Of a stretch of DNA of 64,000 nt, positions 4,534-59,066 are shown piece after piece (the stretch's first letter is position 1; the number at the start of each line of letters is the position of its first letter). The notes under the pieces were generated by a model that was not told where the DNA came from, made no database searches, and was given only the letters and a program-made list of their open reading frames with translations. Both the position numbers and the translations under genes were made by a program. The stretch comes from Escherichia coli (lineage in GTDB: Bacteria; Pseudomonadota; Gammaproteobacteria; Enterobacterales; Enterobacteriaceae): NCBI RefSeq assembly GCF_003018235.1, contig NZ_CP027437.1. One strand, given 5' to 3'.

Positions 4534-4610
4534 GGCTACGTAGCTCAGTTGGTTAGAGCACATCACTCATAATGATGGGGTCACAGGTTCGAATCCCGTC
4601 GTAGCCACCA
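4534..4610 (+). tRNA. metT: tRNA-Met (elongator, anticodon CAU)
   Basis: 77-nt cloverleaf GGCTACGTAGCTCAGTTGG...CCA; anticodon loop CTCATAA. Confidence 0.93.
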
Positions 4611-4620
4611 TCTTTTTTTT

Positions 4621-4705
4621 GCGGGAGTGGCGAAATTGGTAGACGCACCAGATTTAGGTTCTGGCGCCGCAAGGTGTGCGAGTTCAAGTCTCGCCTCCCG
4701 CACCA
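4621..4705 (+). tRNA. leuW: tRNA-Leu (anticodon UAG)
   Basis: 85-nt class II tRNA GCGGGAGTGGCGAAATTGGTAGACGC...; anticodon loop TTTAGGT; ends CCA. Confidence 0.92.
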
Positions 4706-4728
4706 TTCACCAGAAAGCGTTGTACGGA

Positions 4729-4803
4729 TGGGGTATCGCCAAGCGGTAAGGCACCGGTTTTTGATACCGGCATTCCCTGGTTCGAATCCAGGTACCCCAG
4801 CCA
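4729..4803 (+). tRNA. glnU: tRNA-Gln (anticodon UUG)
   Basis: 75-nt TGGGGTATCGCCAAGCGGTAAGG...; anticodon loop TTTTGAT; ends CCA. Confidence 0.92.
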
Positions 4804-4837
4804 TCTTCTTCGAGTAAGCGGTTCACCGCCCGGTTAT

Positions 4838-4912
4838 TGGGGTATCGCCAAGCGGTAAGGCACCGGTTTTTGATACCGGCATTCCCTGGTTCGAATCCAG
4901 GTACCCCAGCCA
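4838..4912 (+). tRNA. glnW: tRNA-Gln (anticodon UUG)
   Basis: Identical copy of the preceding tRNA-Gln(UUG). Confidence 0.92.
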
Positions 4913-4927
4913 TCGAAGAAACAATCT

Positions 4928-5004
4928 GGCTACGTAGCTCAGTTGGTTAGAGCACATCACTCATAATGATGGGGTCACAGGTTCGAATCCCGTCGTAGCC
5001 ACCA
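4928..5004 (+). tRNA. metU: tRNA-Met (elongator, anticodon CAU)
   Basis: Identical copy of the tRNA-Met at 4534..4610. Confidence 0.92.
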
Positions 5005-5051
5005 AATTCTGAATGTGTCGAATATGTTCGGCAAATTCAAAAACCAATTTG

Positions 5052-5126
5052 TTGGGGTATCGCCAAGCGGTAAGGCACCGGATTCTGATTCCGGCATTCC
5101 GAGGTTCGAATCCTCGTACCCCAGCC
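5052..5126 (+). tRNA. glnV: tRNA-Gln (anticodon CUG)
   Basis: 75-nt tRNA-Gln variant with anticodon loop TTCTGAT. Confidence 0.92.
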
Positions 5127-5164
5127 AATTTATTCAAGACGCTTACCTTGTAAGTGCACCCAGT

Positions 5165-5239
5165 TGGGGTATCGCCAAGCGGTAAGGCACCGGATTCTGA
5201 TTCCGGCATTCCGAGGTTCGAATCCTCGTACCCCAGCCA
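5165..5239 (+). tRNA. glnX: tRNA-Gln (anticodon CUG)
   Basis: Identical copy of the preceding tRNA-Gln(CUG). Confidence 0.92.
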
Positions 5240-12408: not shown

Positions 12409-12722
12409 ATTCCCCTATCCAACTTTGGCACATCTATTGCTTTGTTATACAAGGCAAAGCTTGAACCAGCATCAGTACAACCCGGTTGCACCACAGCAAT
12501 CCACGGGTAGCACCAAAAGAGTGCATTTTAAGAATTTTGCTTCGGAATGGTGCGGCGCATCTCGCAAAAACAAACAATAAAACAGCAATATCTTTACATT
12601 TAGCCAAACTAAATGTTACCTAACAAGCACAACACTGCACAATAAAGTTGCAGATGATAACAACACAAACACTCACAACGGGTATCCATGCGTTCTTAAC
12701 GCAGAAGATAAAGGAGTTGGAT

Positions 12723-13631
12723 ATGCAATTACGTAAACCTGCCACAGCAATCCTGGCCTTGGCGCTTTCCGCAGGACTGGCACAGGCAGATGACGCCGCC
12801 CCGGCAGCGGGCAGTACGCTGGACAAAATCGCCAAAAACGGTGTGATTGTCGTCGGTCACCGTGAATCTTCAGTACCTTTCTCTTATTACGACAATCAGC
12901 AAAAAGTGGTGGGTTACTCGCAGGATTACTCCAACGCCATTGTTGAAGCAGTGAAAAAGAAACTCAACAAACCGGACTTGCAGGTAAAACTGATTCCGAT
13001 CACCTCACAAAACCGTATTCCACTGCTGCAAAACGGCACTTTCGATTTTGAATGTGGTTCTACCACCAACAACGTCGAACGCCAAAAACAGGCGGCTTTC
13101 TCTGACACTATTTTCGTGGTCGGTACGCGCCTTCTGACCAAAAAGGGCGGCGATATCAAAGATTTTGCCGACCTGAAAGGCAAAGCCGTAGTCGTCACTT
13201 CCGGCACTACCTCTGAAGTTTTGCTCAACAAACTGAATGAAGAGCAAAAAATGAATATGCGAATTATCAGCGCCAAAGATCACGGTGACTCTTTCCGTAC
13301 CCTGGAAAGCGGTCGTGCCGTTGCCTTTATGATGGATGATGCTCTGCTGGCTGGTGAACGTGCGAAAGCGAAGAAACCAGACAACTGGGAAATCGTCGGC
13401 AAGCCGCAGTCTCAGGAAGCCTACGGTTGCATGTTGCGTAAAGACGATCCGCAGTTCAAAAAGCTGATGGATGACACCATCGCGCAGGTGCAGACCTCCG
13501 GTGAAGCGGAAAAATGGTTTGATAAATGGTTCAAAAATCCAATTCCGCCGAAAAACCTGAACATGAATTTCGAACTGTCAGACGAAATGAAAGCACTGTT
13601 CAAAGAACCGAATGACAAGGCACTGAACTAA
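12723..13631 (+). CDS. gltI: Periplasmic glutamate/aspartate-binding protein
   Basis: 302-aa protein starting MQLRKPATAILALALSAGLAQA (signal peptide) after AAGGAG SD; track ORF 12648 is an N-terminal extension. Confidence 0.93.
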   Translation: MQLRKPATAILALALSAGLAQADDAAPAAGSTLDKIAKNGVIVVGHRESSVPFSYYDNQQKVVGYSQDYSNAIVEAVKKKLNKPDLQVKLIPITSQNRIPLLQNGTFDFECGSTTNNVERQKQAAFSDTIFVVGTRLLTKKGGDIKDFADLKGKAVVVTSGTTSEVLLNKLNEEQKMNMRIISAKDHGDSFRTLESGRAVAFMMDDALLAGERAKAKKPDNWEIVGKPQSQEAYGCMLRKDDPQFKKLMDDTIAQVQTSGEAEKWFDKWFKNPIPPKNLNMNFELSDEMKALFKEPNDKALN

Positions 13632-13788
13632 TTACAAGAACCAGGGGCGGAAATTCCAGCCCTCTCGATTGTTACGTAGCACGGACAGACTATACGCCTG
13701 ATGGTCGTTCCCCATCGGGCCTGAAAACCGCAATACGCTGGGTAACAATCTTCGAGGGTAGCAGTTAACGCTGCTACCCTCTTTTTTC
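13632..13788 (+). ncRNA. sroC: SroC-like small RNA from the gltI-gltJ spacer
   Basis: Location between gltI stop and gltJ start; 9-bp stem hairpin GGGTAGCAG/CTGCTACCC (13756-13779) followed by TCTTTTTT; 5' end is approximate. Confidence 0.55.
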
Positions 13789-13800
13789 TGGAGTAGATTT

Positions 13801-14541: not shown

Positions 14542-15215
14542 TGTACGAGTTTGACTGGAGTTCCATTGTCCCTTCCCTGCCATATCTGCTGGATGGGCTG
14601 GTGATCACCCTGAAAATCACCGTCACGGCAGTGGTGATTGGTATTTTATGGGGCACCATGCTGGCGGTGATGCGCTTATCCAGCTTTGCGCCCGTAGCGT
14701 GGTTTGCCAAAGCCTACGTTAACGTATTCCGCTCGATTCCTTTAGTTATGGTTTTGCTGTGGTTTTACCTGATCGTGCCGGGTTTTCTGCAAAACGTGCT
14801 GGGATTATCGCCAAAAAATGATATCCGTTTAATTTCGGCAATGGTGGCGTTTTCGATGTTTGAAGCGGCCTACTATTCAGAGATTATCCGTGCCGGTATT
14901 CAAAGTATTTCCCGTGGTCAGTCGAGCGCCGCGCTGGCGTTGGGGATGACTCACTGGCAGTCGATGAAACTGATTATTCTGCCGCAGGCGTTCCGCGCGA
15001 TGGTGCCGCTGCTGCTCACTCAGGGCATCGTACTGTTCCAGGATACCTCACTGGTGTATGTGTTATCTCTGGCCGATTTCTTCCGTACCGCTTCAACCAT
15101 TGGTGAGCGTGATGGTACGCAGGTCGAGATGATCCTGTTTGCCGGATTTGTTTATTTCGTTATTAGCCTTAGCGCGTCGTTGTTGGTCAGCTACTTGAAA
15201 AGAAGGACAGCATAA
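14541..15215 (+). CDS. gltK: Glutamate/aspartate ABC transporter permease
   Basis: 224-aa membrane ORF; start overlaps gltJ stop. Confidence 0.93.
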
Positions 15216-15940
15216 TGATTACCCTGAAAAATGTTTCAAAATGGTATGGTCACTTTCAGGTGCTGACCGACTGCTCAACCGAAGTGAAAAAAGGCGAAGT
15301 GGTGGTGGTTTGCGGCCCGTCTGGTTCCGGCAAATCAACGCTGATTAAAACCGTCAACGGCCTCGAACCGGTGCAGCAAGGTGAAATTACCGTCGATGGT
15401 ATCGTGGTTAACGATAAGAAAACCGATCTGGCAAAGCTGCGTTCCCGCGTCGGGATGGTGTTCCAGCATTTCGAGTTGTTCCCCCATTTGTCGATTATCG
15501 AAAACCTGACCCTGGCGCAGGTGAAAGTGCTTAAACGCGATAAAGCGCCCGCTCGTGAAAAAGCATTGAAATTGCTGGAGCGCGTGGGACTTTCCGCACA
15601 TGCCAATAAATTTCCGGCGCAGCTTTCCGGCGGTCAGCAGCAGCGTGTGGCGATCGCTCGCGCATTGTGTATGGATCCTATTGCCATGCTGTTCGACGAA
15701 CCGACATCGGCGCTGGATCCGGAGATGATCAACGAAGTGCTGGACGTGATGGTGGAACTGGCGAACGAAGGAATGACCATGATGGTGGTGACCCACGAAA
15801 TGGGCTTTGCCCGTAAAGTGGCGAATCGGGTGATCTTTATGGATGAGGGTAAAATTGTCGAAGACTCGCCGAAAGATGCGTTCTTCGATGATCCGAAATC
15901 GGACCGCGCAAAAGACTTCCTCGCGAAAATCCTGCATTAA
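15215..15940 (+). CDS. gltL: Glutamate/aspartate ABC transporter ATP-binding protein
   Basis: 241-aa ORF with Walker [13 protein letters not shown] signature LSGGQQQR, Walker [12 protein letters not shown]. Confidence 0.95.
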
Positions 15941-16057
15941 TCACTCTGGCGCGCATACCCAAGTGCGCGCCATCTCACGCTTTATCGTTTCGCTCCTCGT
16001 ATCTGTTACATCCTGGCGTTACCCTTGTCGCAAAGAAGCACACAACAAGGAGCAACA

Positions 16058-16993
16058 ATGGCACTGCCAATTCTGTTAGATTGCGACCCAGGTCATGATG
16101 ACGCTATCGCAATAGTTCTCGCCCTCGCCTCACCAGAGCTTGATGTCAAAGCAATTACGTCTTCCGCCGGAAACCAGACACCAGAAAAAACCTTACGCAA
16201 TGTTCTGCGTATGCTGACCTTGCTTAATCGCACCGATATTCCGGTGGCAGGCGGCGCGGTAAAACCGTTAATGCGTGAGTTGATTATCGCGGACAATGTG
16301 CACGGTGAAAGCGGTCTCGACGGCCCGGCATTACCGGAACCGACGTTCGCACCGCAAAACTGTACGGCGGTGGAGCTGATGGCGAAAACGCTGCGTGAAA
16401 GTGAGGAACCTGTCACGATTGTGTCTACCGGACCGCAAACTAACGTTGCCTTGCTGCTCAATAGCCATCCGGAACTGCATAGCAAAATCGCCCGTATCGT
16501 GATTATGGGCGGCGCAATGGGGCTTGGTAACTGGACGCCAGCCGCCGAGTTTAATATTTATGTTGACCCGGAAGCGGCAGAAATTGTTTTCCAGTCAGGG
16601 ATCCCGGTGGTGATGGCCGGTCTGGATGTTACTCATAAAGCGCAAATCCACGTTGAAGACACCGAGCGTTTCCGCGCGATTGGCAACCCTGTTTCAACCA
16701 TTGTTGCCGAACTGCTGGATTTCTTCCTCGAATATCATAAAGACGAAAAATGGGGTTTTGTCGGCGCACCGCTGCATGACCCATGCACCATCGCCTGGCT
16801 GTTGAAACCGGAGTTGTTTACCACTGTTGAGCGCTGGGTTGGCGTGGAAACACAAGGGAAATATACCCAGGGTATGACGGTTGTTGATTATTATTATCTG
16901 ACTGGCAATAAACCGAATGCCACTGTAATGGTCGATGTTGATCGTCAGGGCTTTGTTGATTTACTGGCTGATCGTCTGAAATTTTACGCTTAA
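16058..16993 (+). CDS. rihA: Pyrimidine-specific ribonucleoside hydrolase
   Basis: 311-aa protein [16 protein letters not shown] (nucleoside hydrolase DxDxxxDD motif); AAGGAG SD; track ORF 16025 is an extension. Confidence 0.93.
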
Positions 16994-16997
16994 TCAC

Positions 16998-17023
16998 TCG
17001 CCGGATGACATCACGCCATCCGG
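16998..17023. terminator. Bidirectional hairpin between convergent rihA and ybeL
   Basis: GCCGGATGACATCACGCCATCCGGC inverted repeat in the 44-bp spacer. Confidence 0.5.
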
Positions 17024-17037
17024 CACCACTCATTTCA

Positions 17038-17520
17038 TTACGGCTCGAACGGGCGTCTCTGGAACTGGTCATGACCACATTTCGGGCATAGCGTCAGCAC
17101 TTCCGGTGTATAGATCGGGAGATGGAAATGACATTTCTCGCAGACCAGATTACCCAGCCCTACCACTTCTCCGCTGTGATAAACCCCGTGATGATTGAGG
17201 TCCTGGAAAACTTCGCGCCATTCAAGCTGCGTTTTATCGGTGATGTCTGCCAGCTCCTGCCACAAGCTTTCTTTAATCACCCGCATAAAGACGCTGTCAG
17301 ACTCTTCTTTCAGGCTCTCTTCATAGCTCATGGCGAACTCTTCCAGGTCACGTCTGACAGCTCGCGTCAGCTCATCGACTTCGGTTCGCGTTAACTCCCC
17401 TGTTTTTATTACGCGCTCGCGCGCCTGTTCCACCAGTGCGTCGATATCACGTTCGCCATTGCGCAGGCGTTCGCTCAGTGACGCGACCAGTTCACGGTAA
17501 TATTGAGCAACCTTGTTCAT
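17038..17520 (-). CDS. ybeL: DUF1451 protein with C-terminal zinc-ribbon (CxxC...CxxC)
   Basis: 160-aa ORF MNKVAQYYRELVASLSERLRNGERDIDALVEQ...; cysteine pairs CEKCHFH and CPKCGH. Confidence 0.85.
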   Translation of the reverse strand: MNKVAQYYRELVASLSERLRNGERDIDALVEQARERVIKTGELTRTEVDELTRAVRRDLEEFAMSYEESLKEESDSVFMRVIKESLWQELADITDKTQLEWREVFQDLNHHGVYHSGEVVGLGNLVCEKCHFHLPIYTPEVLTLCPKCGHDQFQRRPFEP

Positions 17521-17754
17521 CGTTTCATCTCCCGGGTCGTTAACTGACTATAATAATAGACGTTCTTTGTTCCTTGCTTTGCTAATACGCCCACAAACTC
17601 TGTAAATTAATGTATGAATAATCCGGGCATCATTTCAACGTCGAATGCGCGAAAGGCTGTTTTGACGCGGACGTTTGGGCTATGCTATGCGGATCTGAAA
17701 AACCACCTCAACGCTACATTTGTAGCCGTATTGAAAACAGGACCACTGGCTGCC

Positions 17755-20337
17755 ATGCAAGAGCAATACCGCCCGGAAGAGATAGAATCCAAAGTACAGC
17801 TTCATTGGGATGAGAAGCGCACATTTGAAGTAACCGAAGACGAGAGCAAAGAGAAGTATTACTGCCTGTCTATGCTTCCCTATCCTTCTGGTCGACTACA
17901 CATGGGCCACGTACGTAACTACACCATCGGTGACGTGATCGCCCGCTACCAGCGTATGCTGGGCAAAAACGTCCTGCAGCCGATCGGCTGGGACGCGTTT
18001 GGTCTGCCTGCGGAAGGCGCGGCGGTGAAAAACAACACCGCACCGGCACCGTGGACGTACGACAACATCGCGTACATGAAAAACCAGCTCAAAATGCTGG
18101 GCTTTGGTTATGACTGGAGCCGCGAGCTGGCAACCTGTACACCGGAATACTACCGTTGGGAACAGAAATTCTTCACCGAGCTGTATAAAAAAGGCCTGGT
18201 ATATAAGAAGACTTCTGCAGTCAACTGGTGCCCGAACGACCAGACCGTACTGGCGAACGAACAAGTTATCGACGGCTGCTGCTGGCGCTGCGATACCAAA
18301 GTTGAGCGTAAAGAGATCCCGCAATGGTTTATCAAAATCACCGCTTACGCTGACGAGCTGCTCAACGATCTGGATAAACTGGATCACTGGCCAGACACCG
18401 TTAAAACCATGCAGCGTAACTGGATTGGTCGTTCCGAAGGCGTAGAAATCACTTTCAACGTTAACGACTATGACAACACGCTGACCGTTTACACTACCCG
18501 CCCGGACACCTTTATGGGTTGTACCTACCTGGCGGTAGCGGCAGGTCATCCGCTGGCGCAGAAAGCGGCGGAAAATAATCCTGAACTGGCCGCCTTTATT
18601 GACGAATGCCGTAACACCAAAGTTGCCGAAGCTGAAATGGCAACGATGGAGAAAAAAGGCGTCGATACTGGCTTTAAAGCGGTTCACCCATTAACGGGCG
18701 AAGAAATTCCCGTTTGGGCAGCAAACTTCGTATTGATGGAGTACGGCACGGGCGCAGTTATGGCGGTTCCGGGTCACGACCAGCGCGACTACGAGTTTGC
18801 CTCTAAATACGGCCTGAACATCAAACCGGTTATCCTGGCAGCTGACGGCTCTGAGCCAGATCTTTCTCAGCAAGCCCTGACTGAAAAAGGCGTTCTGTTC
18901 AACTCTGGCGAGTTCAACGGTCTTGACCATGAAGCGGCCTTCAACGCTATCGCCGATAAACTGACTGCGATGGGCGTTGGCGAGCGTAAAGTGAACTACC
19001 GCCTGCGCGACTGGGGTGTTTCCCGTCAACGTTACTGGGGCGCGCCGATTCCGATGGTGACGCTGGAAGACGGTACCGTAATGCCGACCCCGGACGACCA
19101 GCTGCCGGTGATCCTGCCGGAAGATGTGGTGATGGACGGTATTACCAGCCCGATTAAAGCAGATCCGGAGTGGGCAAAAACTACGGTTAACGGTATGCCA
19201 GCGCTGCGTGAAACCGACACTTTCGACACCTTTATGGAGTCCTCCTGGTACTATGCGCGCTACACTTGCCCGGAGTACAAAGAAGGTATGCTGGATTCCA
19301 AAGCGGCTAACTACTGGCTGCCGGTGGATATCTACATTGGTGGTATCGAACACGCCATTATGCACCTGCTCTACTTCCGCTTCTTCCACAAACTGATGCG
19401 TGATGCAGGCATGGTGAACTCTGACGAACCAGCGAAACAGTTGCTGTGTCAGGGTATGGTGCTGGCAGATGCCTTCTACTATGTTGGCGAAAACGGCGAA
19501 CGTAACTGGGTTTCCCCGGTTGATGCTATCGTTGAACGTGACGAGAAAGGCCGTATCGTGAAAGCGAAAGATGCGGCAGGCCATGAACTGGTTTATACCG
19601 GCATGAGCAAAATGTCCAAGTCGAAGAACAACGGTATCGACCCGCAGGTGATGGTTGAACGTTACGGCGCGGACACCGTTCGTCTGTTTATGATGTTTGC
19701 TTCTCCGGCTGATATGACTCTCGAATGGCAGGAATCCGGCGTGGAAGGGGCTAACCGCTTCCTGAAACGTGTCTGGAAACTGGTTTACGAGCACACAGCG
19801 AAAGGTGATGTTGCGGCACTGAACGTTGATGCGCTGACTGAAGATCAGAAAGCGCTGCGTCGCGATGTGCATAAAACGATCGCTAAAGTGACCGATGATA
19901 TCGGCCGTCGTCAGACCTTCAACACCGCAATTGCGGCGATTATGGAGCTGATGAACAAACTGGCGAAAGCACCGACCGATGGCGAGCAGGACCGCGCCCT
20001 GATGCAGGAAGCGCTGCTGGCGGTAGTCCGTATGCTTAACCCGTTCACCCCGCACATCTGCTTCACGCTGTGGCAGGAACTGAAAGGCGAAGGCGATATC
20101 GACAACGCACCGTGGCCGGTTGCTGACGAAAAAGCGATGGTGGAAGACTCCACGCTGGTCGTGGTGCAGGTTAACGGTAAAGTCCGTGCAAAAATCACCG
20201 TTCCGGTGGACGCAACGGAAGAACAGGTTCGCGAACGTGCTGGCCAGGAACATCTGGTAGCAAAATATCTTGATGGCGTTACCGTGCGTAAAGTGATTTA
20301 CGTACCCGGTAAACTCCTCAATCTGGTCGTTGGCTAA
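17755..20337 (+). CDS. leuS: Leucyl-tRNA synthetase
   Basis: 860-aa protein from [15 protein letters not shown]; HMGH and KMSKS class I motifs; track ORF 17614 has a 47-codon upstream extension. Confidence 0.96.
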
Positions 20338-34993: not shown

Positions 34994-35026
34994 AAAAAAA
35001 ACCCGCTGATTAAGCGGGTTTTGAAT
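34994..35026. terminator. Bidirectional intrinsic terminator between convergent crcB and cspE
   Basis: AAAAAAAACCCGCTGATTAAGCGGGTTTTG hairpin flanked by A- and T-runs. Confidence 0.75.
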
Positions 35027-35041
35027 TCTTGCTGACGTATC

Positions 35042-35251
35042 TTACAGAGCGATTACGTTTGCAGCAGAAGGGCCTTTGGCACCGTTAGTGATTTCGAACT
35101 CTACGCGCTGACCTTCAGCAAGAGTTTTAAAACCATTAGTCTGGATTGCAGAGAAGTGTACGAACACGTCTTTGCTGCCGTCTTCCGGAGTAATGAAACC
35201 GAATCCTTTGGACTCATTAAACCACTTAACGTTACCTTTAATCTTAGACAT
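35042..35251 (-). CDS. cspE: Cold-shock-domain protein CspE
   Basis: 69-aa protein [20 protein letters not shown] (RNP1 motif); track ORF extends 28 codons upstream. Confidence 0.95.
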
Positions 35252-35425
35252 CAAAATTACCTTTACATGAAAAATAGACACAAATGCTGTGTCGGTTACC
35301 AGTACACCAATTGTGGTACGCTTTGTCCAGTGCAACTTTACTAAAAAGTGATAAAAGTCGCGTTATTTTTGATGTTAATTATTTTACTCATTGATTTTAA
35401 AGAGTTTACTAAAATTTCATTTGTC

Positions 35426-48349: not shown

Positions 48350-48496
48350 TCCTCTGATTTACAAAACACGCTAATTCGTCTTCCATAAACCATGACGATT
48401 AAGATTTATACATAATGCGCTACATTGAGGAATTCCCTGAATGTGACGCAAATCACTTCAAAGAGTGAGCAACAGTCAGTATCATCATGTGAGTTA

Positions 48497-48530
48497 AACC
48501 CTCGCCGCCTGACGGTGAGGGTTTTCTTTT
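48497..48530 (+). terminator. Hairpin plus T-run in the rna-rnk spacer
   Basis: AACCCTCGCC-GCCTGAC-GGTGAGGGTT followed by TTCTTTTG, about 50 bp upstream of rnk ATG. Confidence 0.55.
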
Positions 48531-48578
48531 GGGTATGTTTATCTGCGACACTCGCAGTACCGACGACATGGAGTAAAA

Positions 48579-49048: not shown

Positions 49049-49131
49049 GCTCAAATATCAACCAGATTTATCATTTTGCTCTTAAGCGCAGCATTCTAAT
49101 CTGAACTGGTTATTCATCTGCGGAACCTCAT

Positions 49132-49221
49132 ATGAGCGAAGCTCTCGGTATCACTGCATTTTATATATTCATAGCAGCAATTATTGTTGCTGCAGTGCTA
49201 TACCTTGAACAACGCTGGTAG
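49132..49221 (+). CDS. Candidate 29-codon hydrophobic small ORF (single predicted TM helix); speculative
   Basis: ATG 49132 to TAG 49219: MSEALGITAFYIFIAAIIVAAVLYLEQRW; weak SD; not in supplied ORF track because under 60 aa. Confidence 0.2.
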   Translation: MSEALGITAFYIFIAAIIVAAVLYLEQRW

Positions 49222-49344
49222 CGCCTGGTTTTATTTATTTTCCAGCTCAATAGCAAATTCAGATCAAATCAGCCTCGCAAATCATAGATTCATAACCAAT
49301 AATGTGCTGTTATGTATACATGCAAAAACAAGGAGAGAATGCTT

Positions 49345-51459: not shown

Positions 51460-51629
51460 GTTTATCTCCTGGGCTTTAAACATCATCATGCAAGCGGCCT
51501 CTGCGGCTACCTGGATGCAGCTTGCATCATGGTGCGGGGAAGAAAATCGGGTGCCGCAGCACCCGAAGAATTAGGTGAATTTCCGAAGTATTTCGCGCCG
51601 GAGTTGGTAGCGCGAAAGACGAAGGAAAT

Positions 51630-52193
51630 TTAGATTTTACCAACCAGGTCCAGAGACGGAGCCAGAGTTGCTTCACCTTCTTTCCATTTAGCCGGGCAAA
51701 CTTCACCTGGGTGAGAAGCTACGTACTGTGCTGCTTTGATTTTACGCAGCAGGTCAGACGCGTCACGGCCAATGCCTTCAGCGGTAACTTCGATTGCCTG
51801 GATGATACCCTGCGGGTCAACAACGAAGGTCGCACGGTCAGCCAGACCTTCATCTTCACGCATGTTGTCGAAGTTACGGGTCAGGGCGCCAGTCGGGTCG
51901 CCGATCATCGCATATTTGATTTTAGCGATGGTTTCAGAGCTGCTGTGCCATGCTTTGTGGGTGAAGTGAGTATCGGTAGATACTGCGTATACGTCTACGC
52001 CCAGTTTCTGCAGTTCTTCGTAGTGGTCAGCAACGTCACCCAGTTCGGTCGGGCATACGAAAGTAAAGTCAGCCGGGTAGAAGAAGAAGACGCTCCAGCG
52101 GCCTTCGGTATCTTTTTCGGTGATTTCGATGAATTCGCCGTTTTTGAATGCCTGGTTTTTAAAAGGTTTAATTTTGGTGTTAATCAAGGACAT
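51630..52193 (-). CDS. ahpC: Alkyl hydroperoxide reductase subunit C (2-Cys peroxiredoxin)
   Basis: 187-aa ORF with peroxidatic Cys in FTFVCPTEL and resolving Cys near C-terminus. Confidence 0.96.
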
Positions 52194-52494
52194 CTATACT
52201 TCCTCCGTGTTTTCGATGAGATGTAAGGTAACCAATTTTTGCCGATTCGGCTAATGCGTTTCCATTATCAAATCGATAAGTTTTACCTTACAACCTTCGT
52301 AAGACAACTTTGTGAACTTTGCACCGCCAGCGGCGATAAAAAGTAAAATGGCCCCCTTTCCAGGTGACCGTGTAATCTGAACTACCCTTTGGTATCTTCA
52401 GCGCCTGCCTGCAGGCTGAGGTGTTGCCCTTACAAATGCAACAACGACATGGATTACAACACCCTCATAAACAAAGGGCAATCACCTGATCTAA

Positions 52495-52530
52495 GCTCTT
52501 ACCTATGACAGTGATAGGTTATGCCTTTTA
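52495..52530. promoter_or_regulatory. Candidate OxyR-type operator in the ahpC / dsbG divergent region
   Basis: CTAT-N7-ATAG core (ACCTATGACAGTGATAGGTTATG) matches the centre of the OxyR tetrad consensus; exact site not verified. Confidence 0.35.
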
Positions 52531-52564
52531 CCCGACTTTTGCACTGACTGAAAAGGACAAATTA

Positions 52565-53311
52565 ATGTTAAAAAAGATACTTTTACTGGCTCTGCTTCCT
52601 GCAATCGCCTTCGCAGAGGAACTTCCTGATCCAGTAAAAGCGATTGAAAAACAGGGCATTACAATCATCAAAACGTTCGATGCTCCCGGAGGAATGAAAG
52701 GTTATCTCGGCAAGTATCAGGATATGGGCGTCACCATCTACCTGACTCCAGATGGTAAGCACGCTATCTCCGGTTACATGTACAACGAGAAAGGTGAAAA
52801 CCTGAGTAACACACTTATCGAAAAAGAAATTTACGCACCAGCCGGGCGCGAAATGTGGCAACGGATGGAACAATCCCACTGGCTCCTCGACGGTAAAAAA
52901 GACGCGCCGGTCATTGTCTACGTCTTCGCCGATCCGTTCTGCCCATATTGTAAACAGTTCTGGCAGCAGGCTCGCCCGTGGGTTGATTCTGGCAAAGTGC
53001 AATTAAGAACATTGTTGGTTGGCGTTATCAAGCCAGAAAGCCCGGCGACAGCAGCGGCAATTCTTGCCTCCAAAGATCCCGCAAAAACCTGGCAAGAATA
53101 TGAAGCCTCTGGTGGCAAGCTTAAGCTAAACGTGCCTGCAAACGTAAGTACAGAGCAAATGAAAGTGTTAAGCGACAACGAGAAACTGATGGACGATCTG
53201 GGGGCAAATGTCACACCAGCTATCTACTACATGAGTAAGGAAAATACGCTGCAACAGGCCGTGGGGTTGCCCGATCAGAAAACGCTTAATATCATTATGG
53301 GGAATAAATAA
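52565..53311 (+). CDS. dsbG: Periplasmic thiol:disulfide oxidoreductase DsbG
   Basis: 248-aa protein from [17 protein letters not shown] (signal peptide) with CPYC active site. Confidence 0.92.
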
Positions 53312-53518
53312 AAGATAATTCATGGATGGTTGAAATATATCCCTGTTTTTCAACCATCCTAAAAAAGCATGAATTGCTCGCTCTGCCCTAAGTGGCTGTG
53401 CTATTTTAGAAAAACTTAATTCTGAGTTAAGCAAAAAAATATAATACAAATAAATACAACAGCAACATTATTGAACAAATGAATGATTTATAGAAGAGAT
53501 AATATAACGGAGTATGTT

Positions 53519-54421
53519 ATGGCGAATCTTTATGACCTAAAAAAATTTGATCTGAATTTACTGGTCATATTTGAGTGCATTTATCAACACCTCAGCATTA
53601 GCAAAGCAGCAGAATCATTATATATAACGCCCTCTGCTGTTAGTCAGTCGTTACAACGTTTACGCGCGCAATTTAATGACCCGTTATTCATCCGCTCAGG
53701 GAAAGGTATCGCGCCGACTACGACAGGGTTAAACCTGCATCACCATCTTGAGAAGAATCTCCGAGGCCTTGAACAAACGATCAATATTGTTAATAAGTCT
53801 GAGCTAAAGAAAAATTTTATTATCTACGGTCCTCAGCTTATTTCTTGTACTAATAACAACATGCTAATCTGCTGTCTTAGACAAGATACTTCAATCGATA
53901 TAGAATGCCATGACATACTGCTTTCAGCTGAAAATGCCGAAGAACTGTTGGTTCAACGCAAAACTGACCTGGCAATTACACTACAACCAGTAATTAGCCG
54001 CTCTGTCATCTGCATGCCGTTACATACTATTCGCAATTCTCTTATATGTAGCAATAAACATCCTCGTATTACCGATACCAGTAACTATGAACAAATTATC
54101 GCCGAAGAATTCACCTTGTTGATATCTAAATCAGCAGGGATTGACGAAATTCAAATGGACATAGATGAACGTTTTATGAACCGTAAAGTTTCATTTCGCA
54201 GTTCTTCTTTGTTGACGATAATTAATAGTATTTCTGTTACTGACTTATTGGGCATTGTGCCCACCGAACTGTACGATTTACATCGTGATTTTTTGAAGTT
54301 ACAAGAGATAAAACTGGAACGACCACTTCCTGCGGTTAAACTTTATATTTCCTATAACAAGGCTTCGTTGAACAACCTTGTCTTCTCACGATTCATAGAT
54401 CGTTTAAATGATAGCTTCTGA
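53519..54421 (+). CDS. ybdO: LysR-family transcriptional regulator (AT-rich gene)
   Basis: 300-aa protein MANLYDLKKFDLNLLVIFECIY... with LysR HTH (TPSAVSQSLQRLR). Confidence 0.88.
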   Translation: MANLYDLKKFDLNLLVIFECIYQHLSISKAAESLYITPSAVSQSLQRLRAQFNDPLFIRSGKGIAPTTTGLNLHHHLEKNLRGLEQTINIVNKSELKKNFIIYGPQLISCTNNNMLICCLRQDTSIDIECHDILLSAENAEELLVQRKTDLAITLQPVISRSVICMPLHTIRNSLICSNKHPRITDTSNYEQIIAEEFTLLISKSAGIDEIQMDIDERFMNRKVSFRSSSLLTIINSISVTDLLGIVPTELYDLHRDFLKLQEIKLERPLPAVKLYISYNKASLNNLVFSRFIDRLNDSF

Positions 54422-54460
54422 TTTATTACCACGGATAAATGTTATATTACGCATCAATTG

Positions 54461-54475
54461 ATTCATTGTGTGAAT
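54461..54475. promoter_or_regulatory. Candidate LysR-type T-N11-A box upstream of ybdN
   Basis: ATTCATTGTGTGAAT dyad (TTCA-N5-TGAA) about 95 bp upstream of ybdN start, adjacent to LysR gene ybdO. Confidence 0.3.
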
Positions 54476-54567
54476 ATAAAATAATGTGCTCTATCTTGCT
54501 TCGTTTACCCTATAATTAACGGATTCATCTCACGAGTCACCCCGTAACGTTCAGAGAGCGTTTTCAG

Positions 54568-55788
54568 ATGTCTATTTATAAAATCCCGCTTCCACTGAAT
54601 ATTCTGGAAGCTGCAAAAGAACGTATTACCTGGACACTTAACACCCTACCCCGCGTCTGCGTTTCTTTTTCGGGTGGTAAAGATTCCGGATTAATGCTGC
54701 ATCTGACCGCCGAACTTGCCCGACAAATGGGCAAAAAAATTTGTGTTTTATTTATCGACTGGGAAGCTCAGTTCTCTTGCACCATTAACTATGTTCAGTC
54801 TCTGCGCGAGTTGTACACCGATGTCATCGAAGAGTTTTACTGGATTGCGCTCCCGCTTACAACGCAAAATTCCCTATCACAATACCAACCCGAATGGCAG
54901 TGCTGGGAACCTGATGTCGAATGGGTACGTCAGCCCCCGCAAGATGCGATAACCGATCCTGACTTTTTCTCCTTTTACCAGCCTGGCATGACCTTCGAAC
55001 AATTTGTGCGTGAGTTTGCCGAATGGTTTTCGCAAAAACGTCCGGCGGCGATGATGATCGGCATCCGTGCGGATGAGTCCTACAACCGTTTTGTCGCCAT
55101 CGCCAGTTTAAATAAACAACGTTTTGCCGATGATAAGCCCTGGACTACTGCCGCACCAGGCGGTCATAGCTGGTACATTTACCCCATCTACGACTGGAAA
55201 GTCGCTGATATCTGGACCTGGTATGCTAGCCATCAACGCCTCTGTAACCCACTGTATAATATAATGTATCAGGCAGGCGTTCCTCTACGTCATATGCGAA
55301 TTTGCGAACCTTTTGGTCCGGAACAACGGCAAGGATTATGGCTCTATCACGTTATCGAACCGGATCGCTGGGCTGCTATGTGCGCACGAGTCAGCGGGGT
55401 AAAAAGTGGCGGCATTTACGCCGGACATGACAACCATTTTTATGGTCATCGGAAAATCCTCAAGCCCGAACATTTAGACTGGCAGGAGTATGCATTATTG
55501 CTACTCAACAGCATGCCGGAGAAAACAGCTGAGCATTATCGCAATAAAATCGCCATTTATTTGCACTGGTATCAGAAAAAAGGCATCGAGGTTCCACAAA
55601 CCCAGCAAGGGGACATTGGCGCGAAAGATATCCCCTCCTGGCGGCGAATATGCAAAGTTTTACTCAATAACGATTACTGGTGTCGGGCATTATCATTTAG
55701 CCCGACCAAAGCGAAGAACTATCAGCGTTATAACGAACGAATAAAAGGAAAACGTCAGGAATGGGGGATACTATGCAACAACGATTAA
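54568..55788 (+). CDS. ybdN: PAPS-reductase-like PP-loop ATP pyrophosphatase family protein (IbrA-like)
   Basis: 406-aa ORF with PP-loop motif SFSGGKDSG near N-terminus. Confidence 0.85.
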   Translation: MSIYKIPLPLNILEAAKERITWTLNTLPRVCVSFSGGKDSGLMLHLTAELARQMGKKICVLFIDWEAQFSCTINYVQSLRELYTDVIEEFYWIALPLTTQNSLSQYQPEWQCWEPDVEWVRQPPQDAITDPDFFSFYQPGMTFEQFVREFAEWFSQKRPAAMMIGIRADESYNRFVAIASLNKQRFADDKPWTTAAPGGHSWYIYPIYDWKVADIWTWYASHQRLCNPLYNIMYQAGVPLRHMRICEPFGPEQRQGLWLYHVIEPDRWAAMCARVSGVKSGGIYAGHDNHFYGHRKILKPEHLDWQEYALLLLNSMPEKTAEHYRNKIAIYLHWYQKKGIEVPQTQQGDIGAKDIPSWRRICKVLLNNDYWCRALSFSPTKAKNYQRYNERIKGKRQEWGILCNND

Positions 55789-56390
55789 CGCAGGATTTAA
55801 CCCAATTTCTCGCCAGCTTGCCGGAAGACGATCGCATCAAAGCGATTAATGAAATCCGCATGGCGATCCATCAGGTTAGCCCCTTTCGAGAAGAGCCAGT
55901 GGATTGCGTTCTGTGGGTTAAAAACAGCCAACTTATGCCTAATGATTACAACCCAAACAACGTGGCACCACCCGAAAAAAAACTGCTGAAAAAATCCATT
56001 GAAATAGATGGTTTTACCCAACCCATTGTGGTCACGCATACGGATAAAAATGCCCTGGAAATCGTGGATGGTTTTCACCGCCATGAAATTGGTAAAGGCT
56101 CATCATCGTTAAAATTACGCTTAAAAGGTTATTTGCCGGTGACCTGTCTGGAAGGTACGCGTAATCAACGCATCGCCGCGACTATTCGTCATAACCGCGC
56201 TCGTGGACGTCACCAAATCACTGCCATGTCAGAAATCGTCCGTGAACTCAGCCAGTTGGGATGGGACGATAATAAAATTGGCAAAGAGCTGGGAATGGAC
56301 AGCGACGAAGTGCTACGCCTGAAGCAAATTAACGGCCTGCAAGAGTTGTTTGCCGACCGTCAATATTCCCGCGCCTGGACGGTTAAATAG
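55761..56390 (+). CDS. ybdM: ParB/sulfiredoxin-like domain protein (IbrB-like)
   Basis: 209-aa ORF with DGFHRH motif; 28-bp overlap with ybdN. Confidence 0.85.
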   Translation: MGDTMQQRLTQDLTQFLASLPEDDRIKAINEIRMAIHQVSPFREEPVDCVLWVKNSQLMPNDYNPNNVAPPEKKLLKKSIEIDGFTQPIVVTHTDKNALEIVDGFHRHEIGKGSSSLKLRLKGYLPVTCLEGTRNQRIAATIRHNRARGRHQITAMSEIVRELSQLGWDDNKIGKELGMDSDEVLRLKQINGLQELFADRQYSRAWTVK

Positions 56391-57551
56391 CTAAAGCTGG
56401 CGCAGGCGTTCAGCTGCTGCCAGCAACGTCGATTCCTTCTTGGCAAAACAGAGACGAATCAGTTTATGTGGGAAGGGATCGGCGCAAAACACCGATAGCG
56501 GAATCGCCGCTACGCCGTGCTCCTGCGTCAGCCACTGGCAAAACTCAACGTCATCCAGGGTAGATACGGCGCTGTAATCCACCAGCAAAAAGTATGTACC
56601 TTCGCACGGTAAAATCTCCAGCCGGCTTTCATTTAAGGCATTCACCAGAATATCGCGCTTCTGGCGATAAAAGTCCGGTAACGCAAGATAATGCTCAGGT
56701 TCTGCACGTAGCATATCGGCAAGCGCCAGCTGTGCCGGGGTATTCACCGAAAAGGTCAGATACTGATGTACCTTGCGAATTTCGGCACTGATGGGCGCTG
56801 GCGCAACGCAATAACCCACTTTCCAGCCGGTCATATGATAGGTCTTGCCAAACGATGACACCGCCACCGCCCGCTCACGCAGCTGCGGATGCGCCTGCAC
56901 GCTGGCATGGCCCTGTTGTGAAAAGTTGATGTGCTCGTAAACTTCATCGCTAATGACAAAAATCTCGTGCCCGGCAATTGCCTGCCACAAAGCGGCGAAA
57001 TCAGCCTGCTGCCAGACAGTTGCACTGGGGTTATGCGGGGTGTTGAGGATCACCAGTCGGGTGCGCTCGCTTAACAATGCGGCAAATTCCTGCCAGTCCA
57101 CGCGAAAATGCGGTGGTTGCAGTGCAATACGTTTCACTATTCCCCCCGAAAGCGCGATGGCGGGCGCGTAACTGTCATAGCTGGGATCAAAGCAGATCAC
57201 TTCATCACCATTGCGCACCAATGCGGTAATCGCTGCATATAACGCTTCCGTCGCCCCTGCCGTTACGGTGATATCACTATCGGCATCCGGTTGATAGCCA
57301 TACAGACGTTCCGTTTTCTGAGCAATCGCCTCGCGCAAGGCCTGCACGCCAGTCATAGGCGCGTATTGGTTTGCCCCCTGGTCAACATGGTACGCCAGCC
57401 GCTCCTGCAAATAGCGCGGACCATCAAAATCAGGAAAGCCTTGCGAAAGGTTAATCGCCTGGTGTTGCTGCGCCAGCGCGCTCATCTGGGTGAAAATAGT
57501 GGTGCCAAGTTGTGGAAGTTTGCTTTGTGGAATCAGAGGGTTATTTGTCAT
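56391..57551 (-). CDS. ybdL: PLP-dependent aminotransferase (methionine aminotransferase family)
   Basis: 386-aa ORF with fold-type I aminotransferase features and PLP-lysine context SSFGKTYHMTGWKVG. Confidence 0.9.
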   Translation of the reverse strand: MTNNPLIPQSKLPQLGTTIFTQMSALAQQHQAINLSQGFPDFDGPRYLQERLAYHVDQGANQYAPMTGVQALREAIAQKTERLYGYQPDADSDITVTAGATEALYAAITALVRNGDEVICFDPSYDSYAPAIALSGGIVKRIALQPPHFRVDWQEFAALLSERTRLVILNTPHNPSATVWQQADFAALWQAIAGHEIFVISDEVYEHINFSQQGHASVQAHPQLRERAVAVSSFGKTYHMTGWKVGYCVAPAPISAEIRKVHQYLTFSVNTPAQLALADMLRAEPEHYLALPDFYRQKRDILVNALNESRLEILPCEGTYFLLVDYSAVSTLDDVEFCQWLTQEHGVAAIPLSVFCADPFPHKLIRLCFAKKESTLLAAAERLRQL

Positions 57552-57658
57552 TTTTTATTGTGCCTGACGAAGTTGTGTTGAAGGCACTATAACACGATGC
57601 TAGTATTTGGCGATCAAGACGTTTAGATGTCTAAATAAAACAATAAGGACAACACAAC

Positions 57659-58747
57659 ATGCCTCACAATCCTATCCGCGTGGTCGTCGGCCCGGCTAAC
57701 TACTTTTCACATCCCGGCAGTCTCAATCACCTGCACGATTTTTTCACTGATGAACAACTTTCTCGCGCGGTGTGGATCTACGGCGAACGCGCCATTGCTG
57801 CGGCGCAAACAAAACTTCCGCCAGCGTTTGAACTGCCAGGGGCAAAGCATATTTTGTTTCGCGGCCATTGCAGCGAAAGCGATGTACAACAACTGGCGGC
57901 TGAGTCCGGTGACGATCGCAGCGTGGTGATTGGCGTCGGCGGCGGCGCACTGCTCGACACCGCGAAAGCCCTCGCCCGCCGTCTCGGTCTGCCGTTTGTT
58001 GCCGTTCCGACGATCGCCGCCACCTGCGCCGCCTGGACACCGCTCTCCGTCTGGTATAACGATGCCGGACAGGCGCTGCATTATGAGATTTTCGACGACG
58101 CCAATTTTATGGTGCTGGTGGAGCCAGAGATTATCCTCAATGCGCCGCAAGAATATCTGCTGGCGGGGATCGGTGACACGCTGGCGAAATGGTATGAAGC
58201 GGTGGTGCTGGCCCCGCAACCAGAAACGTTGCCGCTAACCGTGCGACTGGGGATCAATAATGCGCAGGCCATTCGCGACGTCTTGTTAAACAGTAGCGAA
58301 CAGGCGCTTGCCGATCAGCAAAATCACCAGTTAACGCAATCATTTTGCGATGTGGTGGATGCGATTATCGCCGGAGGTGGAATGGTCGGTGGTCTGGGCG
58401 ATCGTTTTACGCGTGTGGCGGCGGCCCATGCCGTGCATAACGGTCTGACCGTGCTGCCGCAAACCGAGAAGTTTCTTCACGGCACCAAAGTCGCCTACGG
58501 AATTCTGGTGCAAAGCGCCTTGCTGGGTCAGGATGATGTGCTGGCGCAATTAACAGAGGCGTATCAGCGTTTTCATCTGCCGACTACGCTGGCGGAGCTG
58601 GAAGTGGATATCAATAATCAGGCGGAGATCGACAAAGTGATTGCCCACACCTTGCGCCCGGTGGAATCCATTCATTACCTGCCGGTCACGCTGACACCGG
58701 ATACGTTGCGTGCAGCGTTCGAAAAAGTGGAATCGTTTAAAGCCTGA
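57659..58747 (+). CDS. ybdH: Iron-containing alcohol/glycerol dehydrogenase-family oxidoreductase
   Basis: 362-aa ORF with GVGGGALLDTAKA NAD-binding motif. Confidence 0.88.
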   Translation: MPHNPIRVVVGPANYFSHPGSLNHLHDFFTDEQLSRAVWIYGERAIAAAQTKLPPAFELPGAKHILFRGHCSESDVQQLAAESGDDRSVVIGVGGGALLDTAKALARRLGLPFVAVPTIAATCAAWTPLSVWYNDAGQALHYEIFDDANFMVLVEPEIILNAPQEYLLAGIGDTLAKWYEAVVLAPQPETLPLTVRLGINNAQAIRDVLLNSSEQALADQQNHQLTQSFCDVVDAIIAGGGMVGGLGDRFTRVAAAHAVHNGLTVLPQTEKFLHGTKVAYGILVQSALLGQDDVLAQLTEAYQRFHLPTTLAELEVDINNQAEIDKVIAHTLRPVESIHYLPVTLTPDTLRAAFEKVESFKA

Positions 58748-58756
58748 CGTACATAT

Positions 58757-58954
58757 TTAGCAGCAGCGCGCGCCGCCTTTTCCACCGTAGCGCGCGTCCT
58801 GCCGCTCACGGAAAAACTCCTCGTAGGTCATCGGCGTTTGATCGGGATGGTTAACCCGCATATGTTCGACATAGTTGTCGTAATCAGGCATACCAATCAT
58901 CAGTTTCGCCGCCTGACCTAAATATTTTCCGGCTTTTGCCAGTGAATCAAACAT
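58757..58954 (-). CDS. ybdD: Small DUF466-family protein downstream of cstA
   Basis: 65-aa [61 protein letters not shown]... Confidence 0.88.
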
Positions 58955-59066
58955 CTAAACCTCCGGTAATACAAATGCCCTCCTGAATTAAGAGGGCTTA
59001 ATTGCTATCAACACGCTCGGGCTGAGAGTAAGGGGAACGCTCAGCACATCCCCCCTCACTCTGACT

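Follow-up and report, generated by a model that had tools for sequence, protein, structure and literature searches.

The convergent rihA and ybeL genes of Escherichia coli: a probable ancestral-type, unoccupied allele of an insertion hotspot

In Escherichia coli K-12 MG1655 the region b0643-b0651 reads ybeL, ybeQ, ybeR, djlB, ybeT, ybeU, djlC, hscC, rihA. HscC is a specialised member of the Hsp70 family, and DjlC stimulates its ATPase. In the 64-kb stretch of E. coli DNA analysed here (the window) the two outer genes, rihA and ybeL, face each other across 44 bp, which raises the question of whether this spacer is the sequence that preceded the K-12 block or what remained after the block had been lost. 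The original prediction had taken it for the insertion-free state of a variable locus. The comparisons below support that view, and with a probability of about 0.8 the window carries the unoccupied, ancestral-type allele of an insertion hotspot between convergent rihA and ybeL.

The empty junction and its K-12 counterpart

The genes of the window follow the order gltJ, gltK, gltL and rihA (plus strand), ybeL (minus strand), then leuS, lptE and holA (plus strand). The features that define the locus are, in window coordinates:

15215-15940, plus strand: gltL, last gene of gltIJKL, upstream of rihA, conserved anchor of the left flank; 100% amino acid identity to K-12 GltL (tblastn), and annotated in an identical stretch
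16058-16993, plus strand: rihA, intact, 311 aa, pyrimidine-specific ribonucleoside hydrolase; its stop codon TAA (16991-16993) is the left boundary of the variable site
16994-17037, no strand: spacer between convergent rihA and ybeL, 44 bp, TCACTCGCCGGATGACATCACGCCATCCGGCACCACTCATTTCA; unoccupied site where K-12 has 7,976 bp (ybeQ to hscC)
17000-17024, no strand: REP/BIME-like palindrome GCCGGATG-ACATCACGC-CATCCGGC (N9 loop), described from its fold energies, its uniqueness and a position shared with outgroup REP pairs
17038-17520, minus strand: ybeL, intact, 160 aa, DUF1451 zinc-ribbon protein; its stop codon TAA (17038-17040) is the right boundary of the variable site
17755-20337, plus strand: leuS, divergent from ybeL, conserved anchor of the right flank; TIGR00396 at 1317.5 bits, tblastn match 17755-20334

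RihA matches the NCBIfam equivalog NF007761 with 643.6 bits (cutoff 433) over residues 12-322 of an ORF that starts at 16025, and the true start of rihA is therefore placed at 16058. The protein is 99% identical to K-12 RihA (tblastn), and NZ_OZ547043.1, which carries an identical stretch, has the gene annotated as rihA. YbeL matches NF008261 over its full length with 299.7 bits (cutoff 183) and shows 100% amino acid identity to K-12 YbeL (tblastn). The coordinates and equivalog scores confirm that the two genes are convergent and exactly 44 bp apart with a single hairpin between them. The junction contains no IS, direct repeat or pseudogene fragment, and the palindrome is its sole structured element, in agreement with the claim that it bears no scar, repeat or mobile-element remnant. 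A search of the 64-kb window with the seven block proteins (tblastn) and the block itself (blastn) gave noise only, with best E values of 0.08-0.9, which upholds the predicted absence of hscC, djlB and djlC at rihA-ybeL and finds no homologues of them elsewhere in the window.

Window and K-12 have identical flanking genes in identical orientation, and the difference between their alleles runs exactly from one stop codon to the other. Where the window has its 44-bp palindrome spacer, K-12 carries accessory genes over 7,976 bp, and the two fillings share no sequence. The original prediction named the K-12 gene content correctly, as the MG1655 annotation places all seven genes between rihA and ybeL, but put the block at 9-10 kb; the stop-to-stop segment measures 8.0 kb. 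The 44-bp spacer finds 0 matches at up to three mismatches in the K-12 region, and the palindrome is absent from the block allele. In block-bearing genomes megablast matches break at query position 1037/1038, equivalent to window 17036/17037. The block has a G+C content of 46.9% versus about 52% in the flanks. Its ends in K-12 carry no terminal direct or inverted repeats and share only chance 9-mers, with no common word of 10 nt or more. A classical integrase-type genomic island was considered and rejected, since the K-12 block has no integrase or recombinase, no tRNA or attachment site and no flanking direct repeats, and only its low G+C content fits.

The palindrome has perfect 8-bp arms and forms 11 pairs on the minus strand. 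Folded as RNA, the plus strand reaches -14.8 kcal/mol (z -3.1, with 1 of 200 shuffles as good) and the minus strand -20.1 kcal/mol (z -2.2). The pattern GCCGGATG-N(4-14)-CATCCGGC occurs once in 64 kb versus 0 expected. A canonical intrinsic (Rho-independent) terminator was rejected: the element is a GC-rich stem-loop but lacks a T-tract on either strand, and the interval 16700-17800 holds 0 terminator-like sites. Judged on its sequence, it is a REP/BIME-like element, a GC-rich imperfect palindrome with conserved GCCGGATG...CATCCGGC-type arms, and like the REP/BIME elements of Enterobacteriaceae it is extragenic and situated between convergent genes. It differs from the canonical REP, which is about 35 nt long, ends in a GCCTAC-type tail and is present in many copies per genome, in being 25 nt long, tailless and single-copy within the 64 kb. 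Its probable role is that of a 3'-end hairpin common to the rihA and ybeL transcripts, which it would protect or end in the manner of other REP elements.

Outside this site the window is collinear with K-12 positions 701,805-626,933 (about 75 kb) apart from a few discrete indels. Other variable sites were noted along this stretch. At 49050-49330 ybdR (K-12 b0608) is missing, rnk, yldA and uspG lie side by side, and the 1.6 kb of K-12 is replaced by about 277 bp; ST2747 and E2348/69 share this ybdR-less state, which was counted in 1,815 of 5,422 complete E. coli genomes. The lnt-gltI intergenic region (window ~12616-12623) is without the K-12 IS5D/insH3 copy, and in ST131 the same spot holds a gene for a 626-aa rhomboid-family protease (locus L084, 231-2108), a second variable site 4 kb from rihA-ybeL. 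A 7.4-kb segment at 51610-58969, which corresponds to K-12 632,167-639,528 and runs from ahpC through ybdD including dsbG, citR, ybdN, ybdM, ybdL and hcxA, is 93.8% identical to K-12, whereas the remainder of the window reaches 97-98%, and may thus be divergent or recombinant. Rfam matches at 4534-5236, 13627-13789, 34994-35352, 48425-48533 and 52338-52431 comprise seven tRNAs (Gln/Met/Leu cluster), sroC, a cspA-type 5' UTR, the rnk leader and STnc70, as expected for this K-12 region.

Distribution of the two alleles and decay of the block

The survey set comprised 5,426 complete E. coli genomes, in 5,424 of which the flanks were found. rihA and ybeL are contiguous in 982 of the 5,424 (about 18%). 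The block is present in 4,449 genomes (about four in five), at a coverage of at least 80% in 3,663, and the remaining block-bearing genomes mostly hold decayed forms of about 5.2 kb. Since the empty and block-bearing genomes nearly partition the 5,426, those with an empty site are as a rule without the block anywhere. The spacer is identical or near-identical in 889 empty-site genomes of divergent phylogroups, 372 of them at least 99% identical over a 67-bp junction query and the others off by one or two bases.

Empty-site strains include CFT073, 536, Nissle 1917, E2348/69 and JCM 5491. The first four share the gltL-rihA-ybeL-leuS order of the window with both junction genes intact and no hscC block, and their spacer is also 44 bp long, one base off that of the window (A or G after the right arm). 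The flanking genes of CFT073-type B2 strains are about 1-4% off (ybeL 0.8%, rihA 3.2%), and the nearest relatives of the window are not these named B2 strains but ST2747-, AF40- and O17-type strains. The empty site is thus an ordinary and common presence/absence polymorphism that is already visible in hundreds of annotated genomes, and it involves no novel element or mechanism. A literature search found no published description of the rihA-ybeL locus as variable and returned general Hsp70 reviews and pan-genome tables.

Insertion of the block did not happen recently in the K-12 lineage. It occupies the rihA-ybeL site in E. whittamii, Escherichia sp. E1V33 and MOD1-EC7003 and, in truncated form, in E. 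marmotae, and aligned junction sequences show the same block junctions in E. coli, E. whittamii, ST131 and NCTC10537. S. enterica is syntenic, with rihA, a gene for 412 aa, hscC (83% amino acid identity), two Djl genes, a DUF1266 gene, a YbeQ-like gene and ybeL in this order, and the sequence upstream of its hscC is homologous to K-12. The empty site occurs beyond E. coli in SCPM-O-B-8794, which represents an Escherichia lineage with about 5% divergence in leuS and has an identical hairpin loop. As both block and empty site are found in several Escherichia lineages, the two alleles have long coexisted in the genus.

Two further differences in gene content were observed in these relatives. The 412-aa ORF between rihA and hscC of S. 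enterica (locus L089, 8687-9925) belongs to no Pfam family and is missing from E. coli; the E. coli block begins where this gene ends, and the left junction in Escherichia may therefore derive by deletion from a Salmonella-like block. MOD1-EC7003 has an extra 2.5 kb of 43.7% G+C between ybeL and ybeQ (locus L006, 10481-12996) with two ORFs of about 320 aa that have no Pfam match; a tblastn match to DjlC at 29% identity lies across the region.

The block is eroding in many E. coli strains through pseudogenes, internal-deletion forms of about 5.2 kb and one IS1 deletion. ST131 carries a decayed 5.2-kb block in which ybeQ and djlB are truncated, and NCTC10537 has a different 5.2-kb form whose internal deletion is independent of that of ST131. 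Pseudogenes or internal stops in djlC or ybeQ occur in O157:H7, PS_131_S11 and others. In EM20-18-50 (locus L091, 4001-4946) rihA is followed by 121 bp of block, IS1, 57 bp of block and ybeL. This near-complete, IS1-mediated deletion is an independent route to loss of the module.

Origin of the empty allele

The ancestral state was read from an outgroup scan of 80 loci with one genome per species, a set without E. albertii, E. fergusonii, E. ruysiae, S. bongori or an E. coli representative. In most of these 80 representatives ybeL directly neighbours rihA or, in genomes that lack rihA, gltL; one or the other arrangement is seen in Citrobacter, Kluyvera, Enterobacter, Lelliottia, Pseudocitrobacter, Phytobacter and Trabulsiella and in Salmonella arizonae. 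Direct ybeL-rihA adjacency was found in 31 loci from other Enterobacteriaceae genera.

The spacer itself is also conserved in kind. Canonical REP pairs, e.g. GCCGGATGGCGCTAACGCTTATCCGGCCTAC with an inverted partner, occupy the orthologous spacer in Citrobacter and S. arizonae, and a REP/BIME is found in that of Lelliottia. In C. portucalensis, C. youngae and S. arizonae the spacer consists of an inverted REP pair of about 96 bp (101-102 bp including both stop codons). Its GCCGGATG starts 5 nt after the rihA stop in C. portucalensis and S. arizonae, with GCCGGACG instead in C. youngae, and in all three its CATCCGGC ends 9 nt before the ybeL stop. Citrobacter sp. FP75 has a spacer of 35 bp (41 bp with stop codons) that retains the outer arms only. 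Across the Citrobacter species including FP75 and S. arizonae the arms are offset by 5-6 nt from rihA and 6-9 nt from ybeL; the corresponding offsets in the window are 6 and 13 nt. These conserved offsets speak for the E. coli palindrome as an orthologous, partly collapsed BIME and hence for the empty allele as the pre-insertion sequence. More specifically, the window palindrome is probably what is left of the outer arms of an ancestral inverted REP pair. The block allele is without the palindrome, so deletion of the block could not have recreated the spacer. Outgroup adjacency, the REP offsets, the palindrome-free block allele and the scarred form of the one true deletion together support the predicted insertion-free state.

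Two considerations weigh on the other side. REP elements are a multi-copy family, and the resemblance of the E. coli palindrome to those of Citrobacter might in principle reflect family membership rather than orthology; only the conserved offsets oppose this. The other is that several Escherichia species and S. enterica have the block at this very site, which, taken alone, could mean that the occupied state is old and the empty sites are losses.

With the empty allele as the pre-insertion sequence, the block would have entered once in an ancestor of Escherichia, because its junctions in E. coli and E. whittamii are identical, and a related version would have entered, or been shared with, S. 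enterica. Homologous recombination in the conserved flanks would since have carried empty and occupied alleles from one lineage to another, in which case the exchanged flanking tracts would be short. Allele state differs between closely related E. coli strains. Over the adjacent 24 kb, ST2747 and AF40, which are empty, and O17_K12a and PS_131_S11, which have the full block, are all four about 99.4% identical to the window; on the shared B2 flanks (gltK 100%, leuS 99.7%) CFT073 is empty versus the decayed block of ST131. The flanking SNPs group the strains by phylogroup and not by allele state; linkage to the empty state is confined to one or two sites within about 100 bp (72 bp from the stop on the ybeL side), so that no imported tract can be demonstrated.

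The alternative that survives best concerns the immediate history of the window. An ancestor of this lineage may have had the block and lost it secondarily when recombination in rihA/gltL and ybeL/leuS imported an empty allele from elsewhere in E. coli or Escherichia; the allele would then remain of ancestral type, but the absence of the block would be derived for this lineage. This is possible, at less than even odds. It draws on the mixture of full and empty alleles among the closest relatives, on a spacer that is one base off B2 strains such as CFT073 despite 2-3% flank divergence, and on the mismatches between window and PS_131_S11, which number 8 (rihA side) and 4 (ybeL side) within 300 bp of the junction versus 0-3 per 300 bp in most bins farther away. 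These observations would be equally compatible with O17_K12a and PS_131_S11 having imported the block, and the direction cannot be read from them; the near-junction differences are mostly private SNPs rather than donor-type haplotypes, and no recombination breakpoints were identified.

A de novo deletion or excision of the block in situ, with the 44-bp spacer as its leftover, is very improbable and close to refuted. The erosion of the block in E. coli, with its ybeQ and djlC pseudogenes, two independent deletions to about 5.2 kb and the IS1 deletion of EM20-18-50, speaks for it, but no part of the spacer is present in the block allele, and the spacer agrees with the outgroup REP/BIME in both sequence and offset. 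The same spacer recurs in 889 genomes of divergent phylogroups and in a separate Escherichia lineage. In the sole true deletion seen, the block ends persist as pieces of 121 bp and 57 bp together with IS1, and the block ends have no repeats that could drive a precise excision.

The last alternative, that a collapsed or mis-joined contig dropped the block, found no support and can practically be dismissed, as 982 genomes that were finished independently, reference strains among them, have the identical junction. The flanking genes are moreover both intact, and collinearity with K-12 holds over the 75 kb bar the few indels.

Other cargo at the junction and the meaning of the HscC module

The unoccupied site of E. 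coli has differently filled counterparts in other genera. Citrobacter sp. MGH106 carries a chaperone-usher fimbrial operon between ybeL and rihA/gltL (locus L014, 10481-17355), and Citrobacter sp. Cu233 (locus L018, 10481-19052) has an array of ORFs whose sizes match those of MGH106, one of which was scanned and gave no Pfam match. TpsA/TpsB two-partner secretion genes are found at this position in Leclercia, Silvania and Klebsiella oxytoca (loci L048, L053 and L069, 10481-~14600), and K. grimontii has an insert of similar size. Enterobacter quasihormaechei (locus L032, 5719-7573) has an Hcp gene together with an unknown gene at 35.7% G+C, and further genera have unknown ORFs between ybeL and rihA/gltL. 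Since the cargo differs between genera, the ybeL-rihA/gltL junction is an insertion hotspot. It resembles the integrase-independent hotspots of E. coli and Enterobacteriaceae in its conserved core flanks (leuS-ybeL and rihA/gltL), its varied cargo of lower G+C content and the lack of mobility genes; the window differs from these in being the empty state, with no island content to classify.

The sporadic distribution of HscC has been ascribed to horizontal transfer (review, PMC8215388). A screen of the block for known anti-phage defence against PADLOC-DB was negative, as six of the seven proteins had no match and YbeQ had one sub-threshold match of 19 bits with no qualifying stretch, and a literature search on hscC and phage defence found no link. 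A bolder reading would make the BIME-marked ybeL-rihA spacer a family-wide, integrase-independent hotspot of cargo exchange, and the HscC-DjlB/DjlC-Sel1-DUF1266 block a mobile conflict or stress module, e.g. a membrane-targeted Hsp70 with a defence-like role. This is unlikely. If true, it would explain the patchy distribution, the fast-evolving co-chaperones and the frequent pseudogenisation, and strains with the empty site would be natural knock-outs in which a defence-like role could be tested.

The HscC/DjlB/DjlC chaperone module would appear to be dispensable, and strains with the empty site may therefore lose nothing essential. Its Hsp70 system is accessory in E. coli: about 18% of finished genomes lack it, well-studied B2 pathogens and the probiotic Nissle 1917 among them, and many more have it in a state of decay. 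Studies of HscC, and work that takes K-12 as the reference for gene content, can draw on this. Overall, the ybeL-rihA/gltL junction is documented here as a recurrent insertion site across the Enterobacteriaceae.
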